Shown: positions 31,315 through 36,846 of the stretch, one piece after another
How positions within the stretch are numbered: position 1 is the stretch's first letter
How the letters are laid out: each line of letters begins with the position of its first letter
NCBI RefSeq assembly: GCF_002087085.1
Contig: NZ_MWQY01000017.1
Location: forward strand, 62,001 to 100,096
Length of the DNA: 38,096 nucleotides
Direction: 5' to 3'
Position numbers and translations under genes: made by a program
The notes under the pieces: generated by a model
The model's input: only the letters and a program-made list of their open reading frames with translations
Databases searched by the model: none
Told to the model about the DNA's origin: nothing

Positions 31315-32457
31315 ATGAGCAGTCTGTTTTTTTCTACACCCTTGAGCCGGGAAGAACTGACCCTCAGGGTCCGTCCCCGGGACAACGACGTGCGGGGGGC
31401 CTTTTTCCGGGATACAACCGCGATTATCCATTCAAATCCCTTCAGGCGCCTGAAACACAAGACCCAGGTCTTCTTTACCCCCCAGAACGACCACATCTGC
31501 ACCCGGATAGAGCATGTTCTGCACGTTGCCAGTGTGGCTGCCACCATCTGCCGTTCCCTGAACCTCGACGCGGATCTTGCCTGGGCCATCGGACTCGGAC
31601 ACGATCTGGGGCATACCCCCTTCGGCCATGTGGGGGAGAAAATCGTGGAAGAGATAATGGGTGCCCCCTTTGCCCATGAACTCTATTCCCTGCGGGTTGT
31701 CGACAAGCTGATCAACCACGGGCGGGGGCTCAATCTTACCTATGCCGTCCGGGACGGCATAGTCAATCACTGCGGTGAGCAGTTTGAACAGGCGATAGTA
31801 CCGGATTTTGAGCTCAAGGATCTTTCAGCCATACAGGCCCGGAACCGCTACCCTTCGACCTGGGAGGGCTGCGTTGTCCGGATGTCCGATAAAATTGCCT
31901 ATCTTGGACGGGATTTTGAGGATGCCGTCAAGCTGAGGATTCTTTCCAGGGATTCTCTTCCGAAAAAGGTGAGCAGCCTGCTTGGAGTCTCCAACGGGGA
32001 GATTATCGATTCCCTGGTAAACGACATAATCCAGTCATCCCTCAAGACCGGGACAATCGGTTTTACCAGGCCGGTATATGAGGCACTGCTGAGTTTCAAG
32101 GAATTCAACTACGAACGTATCTATCGACATGAACTTCTATCGGAATACCACAGTTATTTCCGGCGTATTCTCTTTGCCCTCCATACCTATCTGACGGATC
32201 TTTACGCCCGTTTCGGCAGCGAGTACAAACGTTATCCTGAAGAGGGGAATACCCTTGCCGCCCGCTACGGGGAGTATCTTTTAAAAATGGAGGAACTCTA
32301 CAGCAGTGAGAAGGCCTCTCCCTCTTCCATGGCCATCGACTACATCGCGGGAATGACCGATGATTTTGCCCTGGATGCGGTATCGGAGATCATGGTCCCC
32401 AAACACTTCCAGTCGAAATTCGACACCCTTCTGTTTGAAAGGCGGGGAAGAATTTGA
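31315..32457 (+). CDS. dgt: dGTP triphosphohydrolase-like HD protein
   Basis: FRRLKHKTQVF, TRIEH, GHDLGHTPFGHVGE, DKIAY and DYIAGMTD motifs. Confidence 0.92.
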   Translation: MSSLFFSTPLSREELTLRVRPRDNDVRGAFFRDTTAIIHSNPFRRLKHKTQVFFTPQNDHICTRIEHVLHVASVAATICRSLNLDADLAWAIGLGHDLGHTPFGHVGEKIVEEIMGAPFAHELYSLRVVDKLINHGRGLNLTYAVRDGIVNHCGEQFEQAIVPDFELKDLSAIQARNRYPSTWEGCVVRMSDKIAYLGRDFEDAVKLRILSRDSLPKKVSSLLGVSNGEIIDSLVNDIIQSSLKTGTIGFTRPVYEALLSFKEFNYERIYRHELLSEYHSYFRRILFALHTYLTDLYARFGSEYKRYPEEGNTLAARYGEYLLKMEELYSSEKASPSSMAIDYIAGMTDDFALDAVSEIMVPKHFQSKFDTLLFERRGRI

Positions 32458-32482: not shown

Positions 32483-32551
32483 ATAAGCGCCTTGAGAATC
32501 AGCCGCATCCACAGACAGCTTTAAGAAACTTTTTCCGGGAGTTTCAGCGTG

Positions 32552-32815
32552 ATGTACCAGGAGAAAATTGGGGAATACCTTCTGCGCACGGAGGAGATGT
32601 ATCCTCGTCAGGTGGAAAACGTTCTTCTGCGGCAACAGTGCGGTGACAGGCGGCGTTTCGGCGAAATCGCGGTTGACCTGCGCTACATCGATCGAAAAAC
32701 CCTCGAAACCTGTCTTTCCGCCTCTGATCTTCCCCTCTGGACGAAACGGAAAACCGATAAAAGCCTCAGATCCTCAGCTTCCGACAGAGGCATTTCATCT
32801 TTTAAAGAGTCCTGA
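32552..32815 (+). CDS. small stand-alone MshEN/GspE-N-like protein
   Basis: KIGEYLL...VLLRQ-QCGDRR-RFGEIAV...L resembles tandem RLGxxLxxxG...LxxQ repeats; GGGAG SD. Confidence 0.65.
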   Translation: MYQEKIGEYLLRTEEMYPRQVENVLLRQQCGDRRRFGEIAVDLRYIDRKTLETCLSASDLPLWTKRKTDKSLRSSASDRGISSFKES

Positions 32816-32890: not shown

Positions 32891-33589
32891 TTAATTGTTC
32901 CGCAGCTTCGTGGGTATCCCTGCCGATCGAAGCTTCTGTGCAACGGCTTCGAGGACCTCGGGGTTGTAGGGGTCTACATCGCTCCAGGCACTGTCCAGAG
33001 TTCGCTGGTTTCTGTATCCCGACAGAAGGTAAGAGTCCGCCCCCTGCACCTCGGGGATAATGTCGTCGAAATCCTTCTCATCCACGATGCCAGGGACCAT
33101 GGTTGTCCGGAGCTGATGGGGTATCCCGCTCTGGATCAGGATTTTCAGGCTCCTCCGTATCTGTTCTACCAGTTCTTCCGCCTTCGCACCCGGAGACAGA
33201 ACCCTGGGGTAGTTGGAGAAAGATGTCTTGATATCCATGGCGACAAAGTCAGGCCTGAGATTCTCCAGCACTTCGGGAAAACTTCCGTTGGTATCGATTT
33301 TTACCGGCAATCCGAGCTCCCGTATTGCCGTGAGAAGATTCCCGATATTCCGGTGCAGCAGAGGTTCCCCCCCGGTAATCACAACCCCCCCCAGCACGGG
33401 GCGCCGCTTTTCCAGAAACCTGAGGATCTCGTCAAAGGCGATAAAATCCTCCGGAACAGGTCCCTGGACGAGTTCAGGATTGTGACAGTAGGGACAGCGA
33501 AAATTACACCCCGGCGTAAAGAGGACTGCAGCCACCTTGCCGGGGTAATCAATTAGGGAGGTTTTGACCAGCCCCAGACGACGGATCAA
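32891..33589 (-). CDS. nrdG: anaerobic ribonucleoside-triphosphate reductase activating enzyme (radical SAM)
   Basis: SLIDYPG, GCNFRCPYCHN (CxxxCxxC), TGGEP, DTNG and MDIK motifs; last gene of the nrd operon. Confidence 0.93.
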   Translation of the reverse strand: MIRRLGLVKTSLIDYPGKVAAVLFTPGCNFRCPYCHNPELVQGPVPEDFIAFDEILRFLEKRRPVLGGVVITGGEPLLHRNIGNLLTAIRELGLPVKIDTNGSFPEVLENLRPDFVAMDIKTSFSNYPRVLSPGAKAEELVEQIRRSLKILIQSGIPHQLRTTMVPGIVDEKDFDDIIPEVQGADSYLLSGYRNQRTLDSAWSDVDPYNPEVLEAVAQKLRSAGIPTKLRNN

Positions 33590-34143
33590 CCGGCCGCCCG
33601 TTCTTTATTGAAAGTCCTGAGAAGTTCCTGGAGATTTGCACTGCGCAGGACTTCGTTGCCCGCGGAATCCCGGAAGATTACCGTCGGGGTAGCACAGACC
33701 GCAAGTTCTCCCGCCAGTTCAAAACCTTCATCCATGTCCACATTGATCTCGCTTCCCGGAAAGCCGAGTTCCGCAAGATATGTCCTGACGGGTGGACAGT
33801 TCGGGCAGGTAGTGCGGAAGAAATACTGATAGGAGGCTATATTGTTAAGATCCAAGGCCTCTCCGGACTGCTTCTGATCCCCGTCGATACGGCGGCGGAT
33901 TTCGTCTTTAGTTCCAGCAAGCTGCGCTTTTTCCGCGTACTCCCCGGGGAGCTCGAAGGTCCGTCGGTGGTTGTACTCCTCCCGTTTGCCCCGGTTCCAG
34001 TTTTTTACCGAGCGGTAGTATCCGACGATCCGGGTATAGACCTCTGTCTGACGGCCTCTGACGTCTTTGACTTCTCTGTTCAGTCTTTCTATCTCTCTGT
34101 CGATCTGTTCAATTGTCATTGTGCTGTCCGGTTTTTCCTTCAT
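33586..34143 (-). CDS. stand-alone NrdD glycyl-radical domain fused to a glutaredoxin/thioredoxin-like domain
   Basis: TEVYTRIVGYYRSVKNWNRGKREEY is the NrdD C-terminal Gly-radical motif; CPNC and ATP cis-Pro motif follow; own AAGGAG SD. Confidence 0.9.
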   Translation of the reverse strand: MKEKPDSTMTIEQIDREIERLNREVKDVRGRQTEVYTRIVGYYRSVKNWNRGKREEYNHRRTFELPGEYAEKAQLAGTKDEIRRRIDGDQKQSGEALDLNNIASYQYFFRTTCPNCPPVRTYLAELGFPGSEINVDMDEGFELAGELAVCATPTVIFRDSAGNEVLRSANLQELLRTFNKERAAG

Positions 34144-34163
34144 CTTTTACTCCTTTGCTGACT

Positions 34164-36263
34164 TTATGCGCTTTCCGAAACCATCTCGTTCTTCAGGGCT
34201 TCCAGGCGATGGATCTCCGTCTTCAGACGTGCGCGCTCCTCTTCCCGACAGCGGGGACACTCGAAGTGTTCTCCCGAAATGTAGCCGTGAACAGGACATA
34301 CCGAGAAGGTAGGGGTCACGGTGAAGTAGGGAAGGTGGTAGTTTGTTGCGATACTCTTTACGAGGTTCCTGCAGGCTTCGGTGTCTTCTATCGCCTCACC
34401 CACGAGCCCGTGAAAAACGGTGCCCCCGGTGTAGCGGGTCTGCAGAGCGTCCTGATGATCCAGGGCCTCGAAGATATCCTCCGTATATTCCACCGGCAGC
34501 TGGGTGGAGTTGGTATAATATACCTCTTCCTCGCCGCCGGTAATGATGTCGGGATAGCGCTCCTTGTCGTGCTTCGCCAGACGGTAACTGGTGCTTTCGG
34601 CGGGTGTAGCCTCCAGGTTGAAGAGGTCCCCGGTGCGTTCCTGGTAGTCCGCAAGGCGGTCCCGCATGTAGTCCAGTACTTCAAGGGCAAACTGTTTTCC
34701 CTCCGGGAGGGTGATATCCGCTCCGAGAAAGTTGAGGAGGCATTCGTTCATGCCGCAGATGCCTATGGTGGAGAAGTGGTTGTTCAAATGTTTCAGATAC
34801 CGCCTGGTGTAGGGGAACAGACCGTTCTCCATGAGCCGGTTAATAACCTTGCGTTTGATGGTGAGGGACTCGGCGGCCAGATCCATCATGCGGGCCAGGC
34901 GCCGGAAGAACTCCCCCCTGTTCTTTGAAAGGTACCCGATTCTGGGAAGGTTGATGGTTACAACCCCGATGGAACCGGTAAACTCATCGGAGCCGAATAG
35001 TCCTCCGCCCCGTTTTCTGAGTTCCCGCTTGTCGAGTTGGAGGCGGCAGCACATGGAACGTACGTCTCCGGGGTCCAGATCGGAGTTGATGAAGTTCTGA
35101 AAATAGGGTGTGCCGTATTTGGCTGTCATGTCGAAGAGCAGCTCCGCATTGGGGGATTCCCACTGAAATTCCCTGGTAATATTGTAGGTGGGAATGGGGT
35201 ACTGGAATCCCCTGCCGTTGGCGTCCCCGGCAAGCATGAGTTCGATAAAAACTTTGTTTATAAGGTTCATCTCTTCCTGGCAGTCACCGTAGGTAAATTC
35301 AGCCTCGCTGCCCCCGACAATGGCGGGTTTATCCGCCAGGTCCGGCGGAACGGTCCAGTCCAGGGTTATATTGGTAAAGGGCGCCTGACTTCCCCAGCGG
35401 GAGGGGGTGTTGACACCGAAGATGAAACTCTGGATTGCCTGCTTGACGTCATCCTCGCTGAGGGTGTCGATCTTTACAAAGGGAGCCAGATAGGTGTCGA
35501 AACTCGAGAGGGCCTGGGCGCCGGCCCACTCGTTCTGCATGATTCCGAGAAAATTGACTATCTGCTGTATCAGGGTAGACAGGTGCTTTGCCGGAGTCGA
35601 GGTAATCTTGTCCGGAACGCCCCCAAGCCCCTCCTGGATCAGCTGACGAAGGGACCAGCCGGCGCAGTATCCGGAGAACATGGAAAGGTCGTGGATGTGA
35701 AAATCCGCCTTTCTGTGGGCGTCGGCGATCTCGTCGGGATAGATATTCTTGAGCCAGTAGTTGGCGGTGATGGTTCCGGAATTGTGCAGAATCAGACCGC
35801 CCAGGGAAAAGTTGACATTGGCGTTCTCGTTGACTCTCCAGTCCGACTGGCTCAGGTAACCGTCCATGGTGGAATTGATATCCACCATGAGTTTCCTGGT
35901 ATCCCGCATTACCTCGTGACGGGCACGATATATAATGTATTTCTTGGCTATATCGCTCTCTCCGGACTCGATGAGTACGTTCTCCACGATATCCTGAATT
36001 TCTTCCACCGCGGGAGCGGAGTTGGGATGTCGGGTGCTCATGAAATCCAGGAGACGCTTTTCCACCCTGGCGGTAAGAACCTCCACCAGAGGCATGTTTT
36101 CCCTGTCTCTGGCCGCCTGTATGGCCCGGCTTATGGCCGAGGCTATCCGCCAGCGATCATACTGCTCAATGGCTCCGTCCCGCTTGACTATCTGTCGTAC
36201 CGGGTGTCCTTCAGTGTCGGTATGATGTTCCTTTAAAAAATCTTTCCAGCTGTTCTCGGGCAT
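34164..36263 (-). CDS. nrdD: class III anaerobic ribonucleotide reductase large subunit lacking the glycyl-radical loop
   Basis: ATP cone (IVKRDG), HIHDL, YCAG, RSMCCRL finger loop, EATPAE, YTGGT, CPVH...CPRC zinc site; ends without an RxxGY motif. Confidence 0.95.
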   Translation of the reverse strand: MPENSWKDFLKEHHTDTEGHPVRQIVKRDGAIEQYDRWRIASAISRAIQAARDRENMPLVEVLTARVEKRLLDFMSTRHPNSAPAVEEIQDIVENVLIESGESDIAKKYIIYRARHEVMRDTRKLMVDINSTMDGYLSQSDWRVNENANVNFSLGGLILHNSGTITANYWLKNIYPDEIADAHRKADFHIHDLSMFSGYCAGWSLRQLIQEGLGGVPDKITSTPAKHLSTLIQQIVNFLGIMQNEWAGAQALSSFDTYLAPFVKIDTLSEDDVKQAIQSFIFGVNTPSRWGSQAPFTNITLDWTVPPDLADKPAIVGGSEAEFTYGDCQEEMNLINKVFIELMLAGDANGRGFQYPIPTYNITREFQWESPNAELLFDMTAKYGTPYFQNFINSDLDPGDVRSMCCRLQLDKRELRKRGGGLFGSDEFTGSIGVVTINLPRIGYLSKNRGEFFRRLARMMDLAAESLTIKRKVINRLMENGLFPYTRRYLKHLNNHFSTIGICGMNECLLNFLGADITLPEGKQFALEVLDYMRDRLADYQERTGDLFNLEATPAESTSYRLAKHDKERYPDIITGGEEEVYYTNSTQLPVEYTEDIFEALDHQDALQTRYTGGTVFHGLVGEAIEDTEACRNLVKSIATNYHLPYFTVTPTFSVCPVHGYISGEHFECPRCREEERARLKTEIHRLEALKNEMVSESA

Positions 36264-36316: not shown

Positions 36317-36772
36317 CTAGCGGGTAAGCTTTTCGATCTCGTTTATGAACTCATCGACATTGTCAAACATGCGGTACACCGAGGCAAAACGCACATAGGC
36401 AACTCCGTCAAGTTCATAGAGTTTCTTCAGCACCATCTCACCGATCTCCTCGGCACGGATCTCCCTGCTGTTCTTGGATATCAAAGCTGCTTCGTCCTCT
36501 ATGGCGTGAAGCATCTCCTCGATATCCTTCTGGGAAACAGGACGCTTCTGCATGGACCGCTGTATACCCTGTTCGATCTTGTCCATGCTGAACGGTTCCC
36601 GGCGTCCGTCCCTCTTGATCACCATAAGAGGCTTTTCTTCTATGCGCTCGTAAGAGGTAAAGCGATACCCGCAGGACAGACACTCCCGTCGGCGACGTAT
36701 GGACGTACCGCTGGCATTCTGCCGGGACTCAACAACGCGATCTTCCACTTCGTGGCAATGAGGACAGCGCAT
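36317..36772 (-). CDS. nrdR: transcriptional repressor NrdR
   Basis: MRCPHC, IRRRREC..C..RFTSYE, ATP cone VIKRDG and VAYVRFASVY motifs; start ATG 36772. Confidence 0.97.
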   Translation of the reverse strand: MRCPHCHEVEDRVVESRQNASGTSIRRRRECLSCGYRFTSYERIEEKPLMVIKRDGRREPFSMDKIEQGIQRSMQKRPVSQKDIEEMLHAIEDEAALISKNSREIRAEEIGEMVLKKLYELDGVAYVRFASVYRMFDNVDEFINEIEKLTR

Positions 36773-36796
36773 ATTTCTGACTAATTCCTTACAGAG

Positions 36797-36827
36797 CCGC
36801 CATATATAGCGACCGTATATATAGTGC
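36797..36827 (-). promoter_or_regulatory. two adjacent NrdR-box-like sites in the leader
   Basis: TCGCTATATATGGCGG (36797-36812) and GCACTATATATACGGT (36812-36827), compared with consensus acaCwAtATaTwGtgt. Confidence 0.6.
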
Positions 36828-36846
36828 TTAATTACGGACAATCAGA

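Follow-up and report, generated by a model that had tools for sequence, protein, structure and literature searches.

The 38,096-nucleotide stretch of DNA analysed here (the window; positions 62,001 to 100,096 of the forward strand of contig NZ_MWQY01000017.1, RefSeq assembly GCF_002087085.1) carries an nrd cluster in which NrdD, the class III ribonucleotide reductase, is encoded by two genes. A large protein holds the catalytic barrel, a separate small protein holds the glycyl-radical loop and ends in a thioredoxin fold, and nrdG, the gene of the radical-S-adenosylmethionine (SAM) activase, follows. The two-gene split is genuine, conserved and widespread, occurring in this spirochaete and in hundreds of species related to it. 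From the sequences we propose, with a probability of about 75%, that the two polypeptides and the activase would make up a working class III ribonucleotide reductase whose radical is supplied in trans and whose radical subunit has a redoxin tethered to it.

A preliminary description of the window, made from the letters alone, had read the large protein as a 699-residue NrdD that has the ATP cone, barrel, finger loop and zinc site and stops without the R-x-x-G-Y loop. Reading of the open reading frame (ORF) together with Pfam and NCBIfam searches confirmed this. In Pfam the protein matches the ATP cone and covers positions 1-532 of the 562 in NRDD (PF13597; E 1.5e-178), and in NCBIfam it spans positions 3-659 of the 684 in NF006126, scoring 1090.5 bits against a cut-off of 548; the solved chains closest to it are 8p23, 4u3e and 4coi. 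Among the hallmarks of a class III reductase, the catalytic barrel with its finger-loop cysteine lies in the 699-residue chain, and so, judged by sequence, does the zinc ribbon ahead of the radical loop; C656, H659, C669 and C672 presumably bind the metal, by analogy with the family. The R-x-x-G-Y expected at the C terminus of the same chain occurs only in trans, at residues 38-42 of the small protein. A dedicated NrdG activase (TIGR02495) is encoded directly downstream of the small gene.

The small protein holds the end of both profiles: its residues 31-63 match NRDD positions 531-562 in Pfam, and it matches positions 648-682 of the 684 in NF006126. In 40 of 40 small-protein sequences G30, E34, Y36, R38-R44, N48-N50, G52, K53, E56 and R60 are invariant, as are C113, C116, P117, P153 and T154 further downstream. 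The latter residues belong to a conserved thioredoxin fold with a CPNC motif, which closes the small protein, takes up about half of it and was overlooked in the preliminary description. Pfam recognises this domain as Glutaredoxin (PF00462; 24.4 bits, cut-off 22.9), a family found in 36 of the 40 members. Thioredoxins make up 24 of its 25 weak sequence matches in the PDB, with CPNC falling on CGPC and T-P-T on the cis-proline. An AlphaFold2 model built from 40 sequences folds residues ~105-185 in the order strand-helix-strand-helix-strand-strand-helix, with predicted local distance difference test scores (pLDDT) of 91-98, and a Foldseek search with the small-protein model returned 176 PDB matches at E <= 0.001, the best 50 of which are nearly all thioredoxins. 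A CxxC opening helix 1, a cis-proline loop and the order of the fold are all present.

At the junction of the two genes, direct reading upheld the placement of the small gene 20 bp downstream of the large one, in a different frame and behind its own AAGGAG Shine-Dalgarno sequence, as well as the Gly41 codon at 34021-34023 and the nrdG gene that follows. Two codons upstream of its ATG the small ORF has a TAA in its own frame, so a frameshift joining both ORFs would have to cross a stop. The assembly holds across the junction, as contigs from two DNA runs of different studies span 33586-34600 with substitutions only and zero indels. Additionally, one contig from an RNA library spans 34077-34369, across the large-gene stop and the small-gene start; the RNA-library contigs cover parts of the stretch only and may reflect DNA carry-over. 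The TTG start of nrdG shares 4 nucleotides (nt) with the stop of the small gene, and an identical overlap is seen in 6 of 12 loci.

Among 41 genomes of the same class, 30 match the small protein. All 11 of the 12 best loci that have upstream DNA show a large ORF that stops ~20-30 residues past the zinc site, followed by a separate small start; the gaps between the genes are 20, 25, 22, 30, 25, 35, 14, -4, 15, -4 and -8 nt, and the frames vary. Sixteen further genomes are likewise split, which brings the genomes with a separate small gene to 28, with both genes seen in 27. A search with PF13597 gave the same picture, in that 27 of 27 genomes whose large piece ends near position 532 also have a separate 531-562 piece. 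Four genomes (G034, G012, G025 and G024) have a one-chain NrdD, and G040 has one as a second copy. An ORF resembling NrdG stands downstream of the small gene in 26 of the 28 genomes, with G009 and G038 as exceptions; in G001 and G005 just its C-terminal part was picked up by the script. The two genes are far apart in G039, where one contig holds nrdR and the large gene at ~0.71 Mb and the small gene with nrdG at ~1.32 Mb, a distance of 603 kb.

The survey across genomes that the preliminary description had called for was extended to a species-level genome collection, in which a relative is encoded in 557 of at least 588 candidate stretches. Classification by script covered the best 80 loci, with names such as Treponema bryantii, T. 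berlinense, T. porcinum, T. pectinovorum, T. socranskii, Brucepastera and Marispirochaeta. All 80 were classed as split. The plausible gaps span -8 to +348 nt, and only 24 of 77 loci have both ORFs in one frame; larger negative gaps in the list stem from early alternative start codons chosen by the script. Where a long gap separates the pair in Treponema loci, Rfam gave no match within it. Given a stop conserved over such varied gaps and frames, the in-frame stop before the small ATG, the concurring independent assemblies, the unlinked genes of G039 and the purifying selection described below, the split is refuted as an error of assembly, as a decayed gene and as a programmed frameshift that would yield a single chain, and we see practically no chance of such an artefact.

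The preliminary description had also noted extra helical sequence on both sides of the break, which 63 distinct pairs of large and small proteins bear out as heptad-spaced hydrophobic residues. After the last CxxC of the large protein, Leu or Ile stands at +8, +12 and +15, Lys or Arg at +19 (98%) and hydrophobic residues at +22/+23; before G30 of the small protein, hydrophobic residues stand at -19, -16, -12, -9, -5 and -2. Both ends thus show clean 3-4 heptad patterns. Of the 18 one-chain relatives aligned, nine join the last zinc cysteine pair directly to G-x-x-T-E-(I/V)-Y-T-R-I-V-G-Y-Y, and the other nine have an insert there, a full helix-turn-helix in the case of P0121. The break of the split genes falls between these two helices, the first closing the large protein and the second opening the small one. 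AlphaFold2 predicts a helix at residues 11-26 of the small protein (pLDDT 83-92) and, in the natural fused homologue P0121, a helix at 675-694, a six-residue loop and a helix at 701-716 (pLDDT 76-88). Charge covariation between the two helices is weak. Its best pair joins tail +16 and small -8 (r -0.68), a value matched by 15 of 500 shuffles, and is the only one of the three strongest pairs that fits an antiparallel register, in a test confounded by relatedness. On the strength of these patterns and models, we infer that the two helices would form an antiparallel two-helix zipper that keeps the radical loop beside the zinc ribbon.

As to function, the preliminary description had proposed an obligate radical subunit acting in trans, and at the same time a replaceable part that limits oxygen damage to a small protein. 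The first half of this proposal is borne out by the 27 of 27 co-occurrence, by G039 and by the source genome, where the two pieces are the only PF13597 matches and no other NrdD was found. It also agrees with G022 (99% complete, 10 contigs), where the split NrdD is the sole reductase found, searches with PF02867 and TIGR02505 having given no match. As to the second half, the small protein is not a spare of the GrcA type, and its replacement, like a role in confining oxygen damage, is hypothetical. In the mechanism we propose, the two helices would zip up antiparallel and place the glycine loop in the barrel at the position it has in one-chain NrdD. NrdG would then generate the radical on Gly41, and the radical would move to one of the cysteines of the finger loop. 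Turnover would leave a disulfide with Cys200, to be reduced by the tethered thioredoxin-like domain, which in turn could be recharged by the thioredoxin reductase encoded in the genome.

The loop and the redoxin domain are under purifying selection. Compared with the closest relative, the ratio of nonsynonymous to synonymous substitution rates (dN/dS) is 0.13 for the whole small gene. By region it is lowest in the loop (0.016), followed by the redoxin domain (0.066), the N-terminal helix (0.23) and the linker (0.37), rough figures since dS is ~1 and near saturation. This roughness is one of several points that weigh against the two-piece enzyme as we read it. The related genomes are non-independent samples. 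The source genome has a second reductase, of the PF02867 family, so function of the split enzyme is not forced by necessity there. In the model of P0121, pLDDT falls below 50 over residues 727-802, which hold the glycine loop and linker, and over the finger loop at 411-430; the glycine loop is of low confidence in the small-protein model as well.

Small genes of this kind are also carried by viruses. A scan of IMG/VR yielded 33 loci, 14 of which have a small ORF with the heptad helix and the loop, in one case with the redoxin domain too. Nine others (L138-L142, L144, L145, L147 and L148) have an ORF of 41-65 residues that starts with M, one or two residues and K-C and then runs into the loop. 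With a loop of the form R-V-C/T/S-G-Y-F, a different break point and no docking helix, these represent a second type of stand-alone radical mini-protein. The remaining loci comprise 3 other small forms, 6 full-length NrdDs and 1 chance match. Searches of the whole records of the 14 found the barrel in one only, G041, where a large gene with the identical type of helical tail lies 10 nt upstream of the small gene; the other 13 have just the 531-562 piece. Six of these 13 are 92-100% complete according to CheckV, two with direct terminal repeats, and no NrdG was found in the five near-complete viral records tested. One complete phage has the small gene between a DNA methyltransferase and thymidylate synthase. 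The phage copies retain I18, G30, Y36, R38-R44, N48-N50, G52 and R60. A tblastn search of GenBank phages with the loop returned only 2 records.

In viral G041, the large NrdD (L152, 480-3548) is 1022 residues long and has an insert of ~325 residues exactly between the two finger-loop cysteines. The insert begins with Cys and ends in His-Asn before a Cys, as inteins do; the Pfam intein families gave no match to it at E <= 0.01.

A phage that carries the small piece alone must rely on the large subunit and activase of its host, and would presumably plug its product into that large subunit. Phage carriage of the small gene shows that the part is portable and makes exchange of the subunit plausible. 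It is the strongest evidence for exchange in this analysis and says nothing on oxygen. A radical subunit that is a separate gene product would be exchangeable, and it may be tentatively seen as a portable cartridge, renewable by the cell without a new barrel and loaded by phages, whose own copy has the same docking helix, into the host's large subunit with the help of the host's activase, an idea we regard as possible but would not bet on. If it were true, a phage would keep or redirect the supply of deoxynucleoside triphosphates (dNTPs) during infection, and no exchangeable radical subunit would have come before it except in pyruvate formate-lyase (PFL), nor any that virus and host trade for DNA precursors.

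In a rival account the split was selected as a fuse, with O2 destroying only a cheap small protein that is then swapped for a fresh one, as with GrcA/YfiD in PFL. In its favour, the protein with the radical site is small and is translated on its own behind a strong ribosome-binding site, and its gene is translationally coupled to that of the activase. Phages with the small gene alone imply that it can be exchanged into a resident large subunit, and GrcA provides a precedent (PMC13450708; PMC8683613). However, the source genome has no self-sufficient NrdD that could be rescued, and none of the 41 genomes searched has more than one copy of the small gene. A coiled-coil anchor favours a stable over a transient partner, and nothing in the analysis ties the split to oxygen exposure. 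We consider selection as such a fuse rather unlikely.

A neutral origin is another account of the split, in which the helical hairpin insert made a break tolerable and the split drifted to fixation without benefit. In a tree of 31 large-subunit sequences, split and fused forms fall in one clade (Shimodaira-Hasegawa-like approximate likelihood ratio test, SH-aLRT, 100), apart from the other one-chain NrdDs of the class. Branches inside the clade are short, 10 of 28 inner ones are unresolved, and split and fused forms are intermixed. Forcing the 13 split rows into one clade costs 1.17 log-likelihood units (approximately unbiased test, p-AU 0.50), a result that neither establishes a single fission nor rejects it. 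Drift would fit a single origin, as well as the presence in one clade of one-chain relatives with and without the insert (9 of 18 each), and the split class II NrdJa/NrdJb (PMC9669993) shows that reductases tolerate fission. Against drift, split proteins outnumber fused ones (415 + 51 versus 22 database proteins, detailed below), and phages exploit the separate piece. Other small proteins begin inside or before the zinc ribbon, and clusters of similar small proteins in the ESM Atlas are labelled Bacillota and Methanobacteriota, labels that serve as leads only since the sequences were not obtained. The other break points, together with these leads, point to several independent fissions, and such recurrence makes a drift without benefit doubtful.

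Regarding the reductant, the CPNC domain is slightly favoured as a tethered electron donor. This assignment draws on the marks of a thioredoxin-dependent NrdD2 in the large subunit, on a thioredoxin reductase in the genome, on a TrxB-like neighbour in a one-chain relative and on a precedent in class I. The definition of NrdD2 is a third cysteine together with a glutamate, and methionine is found in some of its members too (PMC4493059). The M-C-C-R finger loop, with C405-C406, aligns with S-C-C-R of T. maritima NrdD, and Y199-C200 with Y124-C125 of the same protein. The active-site glutamate would be E551, which aligns with the Glu of F-N-I-E in 4u3e (T. maritima), probably the glutamate of that definition (E495). 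TrxB, the thioredoxin reductase, is encoded in the source genome with 379 bits, above the family cut-off. An unverified phage scaffold (MT835493.1; L118, 536-3856) encodes a one-chain, 802-residue NrdD of the NF006126 family with a C-terminal redoxin domain, followed 4 nt later by a TrxB-like gene (TIGR01292 296.9 bits, below the cut-off of 343). The precedent is a glutaredoxin fused to class I NrdB, a working reductant (PMC6187632).

On the other side stand two points. The redoxin domain is absent in G035 (71 residues), in G039 (95 residues), in 51 short proteins and in most phage copies, so it is dispensable for the split enzyme. In the finger-loop classes of section 2.5 of PMC9669993, from which ours are taken, methionine is linked to formate-dependent reduction, and its absence marks clades that probably depend on thioredoxin alone; here the methionine, M404, is invariant. 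Formate may act instead of, or beside, the redoxin domain. The same methionine leaves room for a redox or oxygen switch, in which the thioredoxin-like domain would control insertion or activation of the glycine loop and deliver no turnover electrons, and the tethering of the domain to the radical loop rather than the barrel would suit that role. Yet redoxins fused to reductase subunits are known to act as reductants (PMC6187632), a one-chain relative has the TrxB-like neighbour, and the large subunit bears the NrdD2 marks, which makes a pure switch improbable.

The family is large. A database clustered at 90% holds 415 relatives of 101-324 residues (among 512 candidates), 51 of 30-100 residues (among 54) and 22 of 325-2000 residues (among 905). 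Residues 28-68, searched against 1.84 billion representatives, gave 1907 matches at E <= 0.001. The best 150 of these are all 56-255 residues long and include no full-length NrdD. Loop, CxxC and cis-proline occur together in 77 of the 150, and 41 have up to 110 residues with the loop only; 30 are longer and lack a full pattern match, several being truncated or variant redoxin domains, and 2 fail the glycine pattern. Public records list the small protein under the names 'anaerobic ribonucleoside-triphosphate reductase', 'glutaredoxin', 'thioredoxin' and 'hypothetical'. A 171-residue member with 42% identity (P0110) is recorded among transcripts of Anaeramoba ignava, an anaerobic protist, where a symbiont, contamination or gene transfer could be its source.

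Compared with known systems, the enzyme shares family, an adjacent radical-SAM activase and the domain order of ATP cone, barrel, finger-loop cysteine, zinc ribbon and R-x-x-G-Y loop with the one-chain NrdD/NrdG of phage T4 (1H78), T. maritima (4U3E/4COI) and P. copri (8P23). It differs in that the chain is cut between zinc ribbon and glycine loop, with an extra heptad helix at each end, and in the thioredoxin-fold domain after the loop. With GrcA/YfiD it has in common a small free-standing protein that is homologous, here through residues 31-63, to the radical domain of such an enzyme and would act in trans. GrcA, however, has a PFL-type radical domain and is a spare for an enzyme with its own; the small protein belongs to the NRDD family, no full-length enzyme with its own radical domain coexists with it in the source genome, and it would be an obligate subunit. 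Phage T4 has a GrcA homologue. According to a June 2026 review, small spare-part radical proteins are known only for formate lyases (PMC13450708). Thioredoxin-dependent NrdD2 (Neisseria bacilliformis, T. maritima) resembles the large subunit in the double-cysteine finger loop, beta-A cysteine and active-site glutamate; here, in contrast, the finger-loop methionine is kept, and a redoxin linked covalently to the radical subunit takes the place of a free thioredoxin. The class I NrdB of Facklamia ignava likewise has a redoxin joined to the radical-carrying subunit and acting as reductant (PMC6187632), but there a glutaredoxin sits at the N terminus of a ferritin-like subunit. NrdJa/NrdJb of Pseudomonas aeruginosa (PMC9669993; PMC4520616) also has a C-terminal functional module as a separate polypeptide, in an enzyme of class II.

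Full-text searches of the literature gave no description of a split NrdD; supplementary tables, such as Table S1 of PMC6187632, lay outside the search and might list such genes. The accessible text of Rozman Grinberg et al. (PMC6187632) lists one grx::nrdD fusion and no split NrdD, and the large phylogenetic surveys (PMC9669993) mention split class II enzymes only. One survey (PMC9531940) kept only sequences of 400 to 1100 residues, a filter by which the small protein would be missed. The split NrdD is a two-subunit form of a known enzyme that has apparently gone undescribed.

Textbooks present class III reductases as glycyl-radical enzymes of a single chain, and here a whole bacterial lineage, including the cultured Treponema species named above, builds one from two chains. 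The radical domain could be made, labelled, activated and added separately, which would render NrdG activation, loop insertion and repair after oxygen damage directly testable. The system would also offer a built-in answer on which reductant serves the common M-C-C-R enzymes, and a new kind of phage auxiliary gene. Public annotation fails to recognise the small protein. The coordinates of the cluster are collected in Table 1.

Table 1 Genes and protein features of the nrd cluster, in positions of the window
Feature	Coordinates	Strand	Remarks
nrdR	36317..36841	minus	first gene of the nrd cluster, nrd transcriptional repressor; TIGR00244 182.7 bits (cut-off 124.65); Pfam Zn_ribbon_NrdR and ATP-cone
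NrdD large subunit, 699 aa	34164..36263	minus	ends in TAA; ATP cone, catalytic barrel, zinc site, helical tail
ATP-cone domain, residues 24-117	35913..36194	minus	PF03477 68.7 bits
Finger-loop motif M-C-C-R, residues 404-407, double-cysteine type	35043..35054	minus	invariant in 13/13 large subunits
Zinc site C656-x2-H659 ... C669-x2-C672	34248..34298	minus	all four residues invariant in the alignment of large subunits
C-terminal amphipathic helix, residues 673-699, proposed docking helix	34167..34247	minus	heptad pattern in 63 distinct pairs
Spacer, 20 nt	34144..34163	minus	Shine-Dalgarno AAGGAG at 34155-34150, six bases before ATG
Small radical subunit, 185 aa	33586..34143	minus	ATG at 34143; PF13597 positions 531-562 and PF00462
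N-terminal amphipathic helix, ~residues 10-29, proposed docking helix	34057..34116	minus	heptad positions before invariant G30
Glycyl-radical loop and canonical NrdD C-terminal segment, residues 30-64	33952..34056	minus	Gly41 codon 34021-34023
Variable linker, residues 65-104	33832..33951	minus	no conserved columns; pLDDT ~50-70
Thioredoxin-fold domain, residues ~105-185	33589..33831	minus	CPNC at 33796-33807, cis-proline T-P-T
nrdG, radical-SAM activase, 232 aa	32891..33589	minus	TTG start; TIGR02495 174.2 bits (cut-off 131.15)

A scan for promoters and terminators gave sites no more numerous than in shuffled sequence. Convergent with the nrd cluster, on the plus strand at 31315-32457, lies a gene for a protein with HD and HD_assoc domains, a dGTPase-like dNTP triphosphohydrolase, which puts a dNTP-degrading gene beside dNTP-making ones; its C-terminal peptide also ends beside the nrd cluster in L001-L003, L006, L007 and L010. 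Between it and nrdG, an ORF of 88 residues (32549-32815, plus strand) has no match in Pfam, and a similar ORF occupies the equivalent place in L002 and L003. The PF02867 reductase (G000, contig C45, 117109-119256) lies in an open frame of 1163 residues that matches the family in two pieces, 2-457 and 433-523, which suggests an insert near its C-terminal part. In five Treponema loci (L062, L059, L091, L090 and L089), a tRNA gene lies directly downstream of nrdG.

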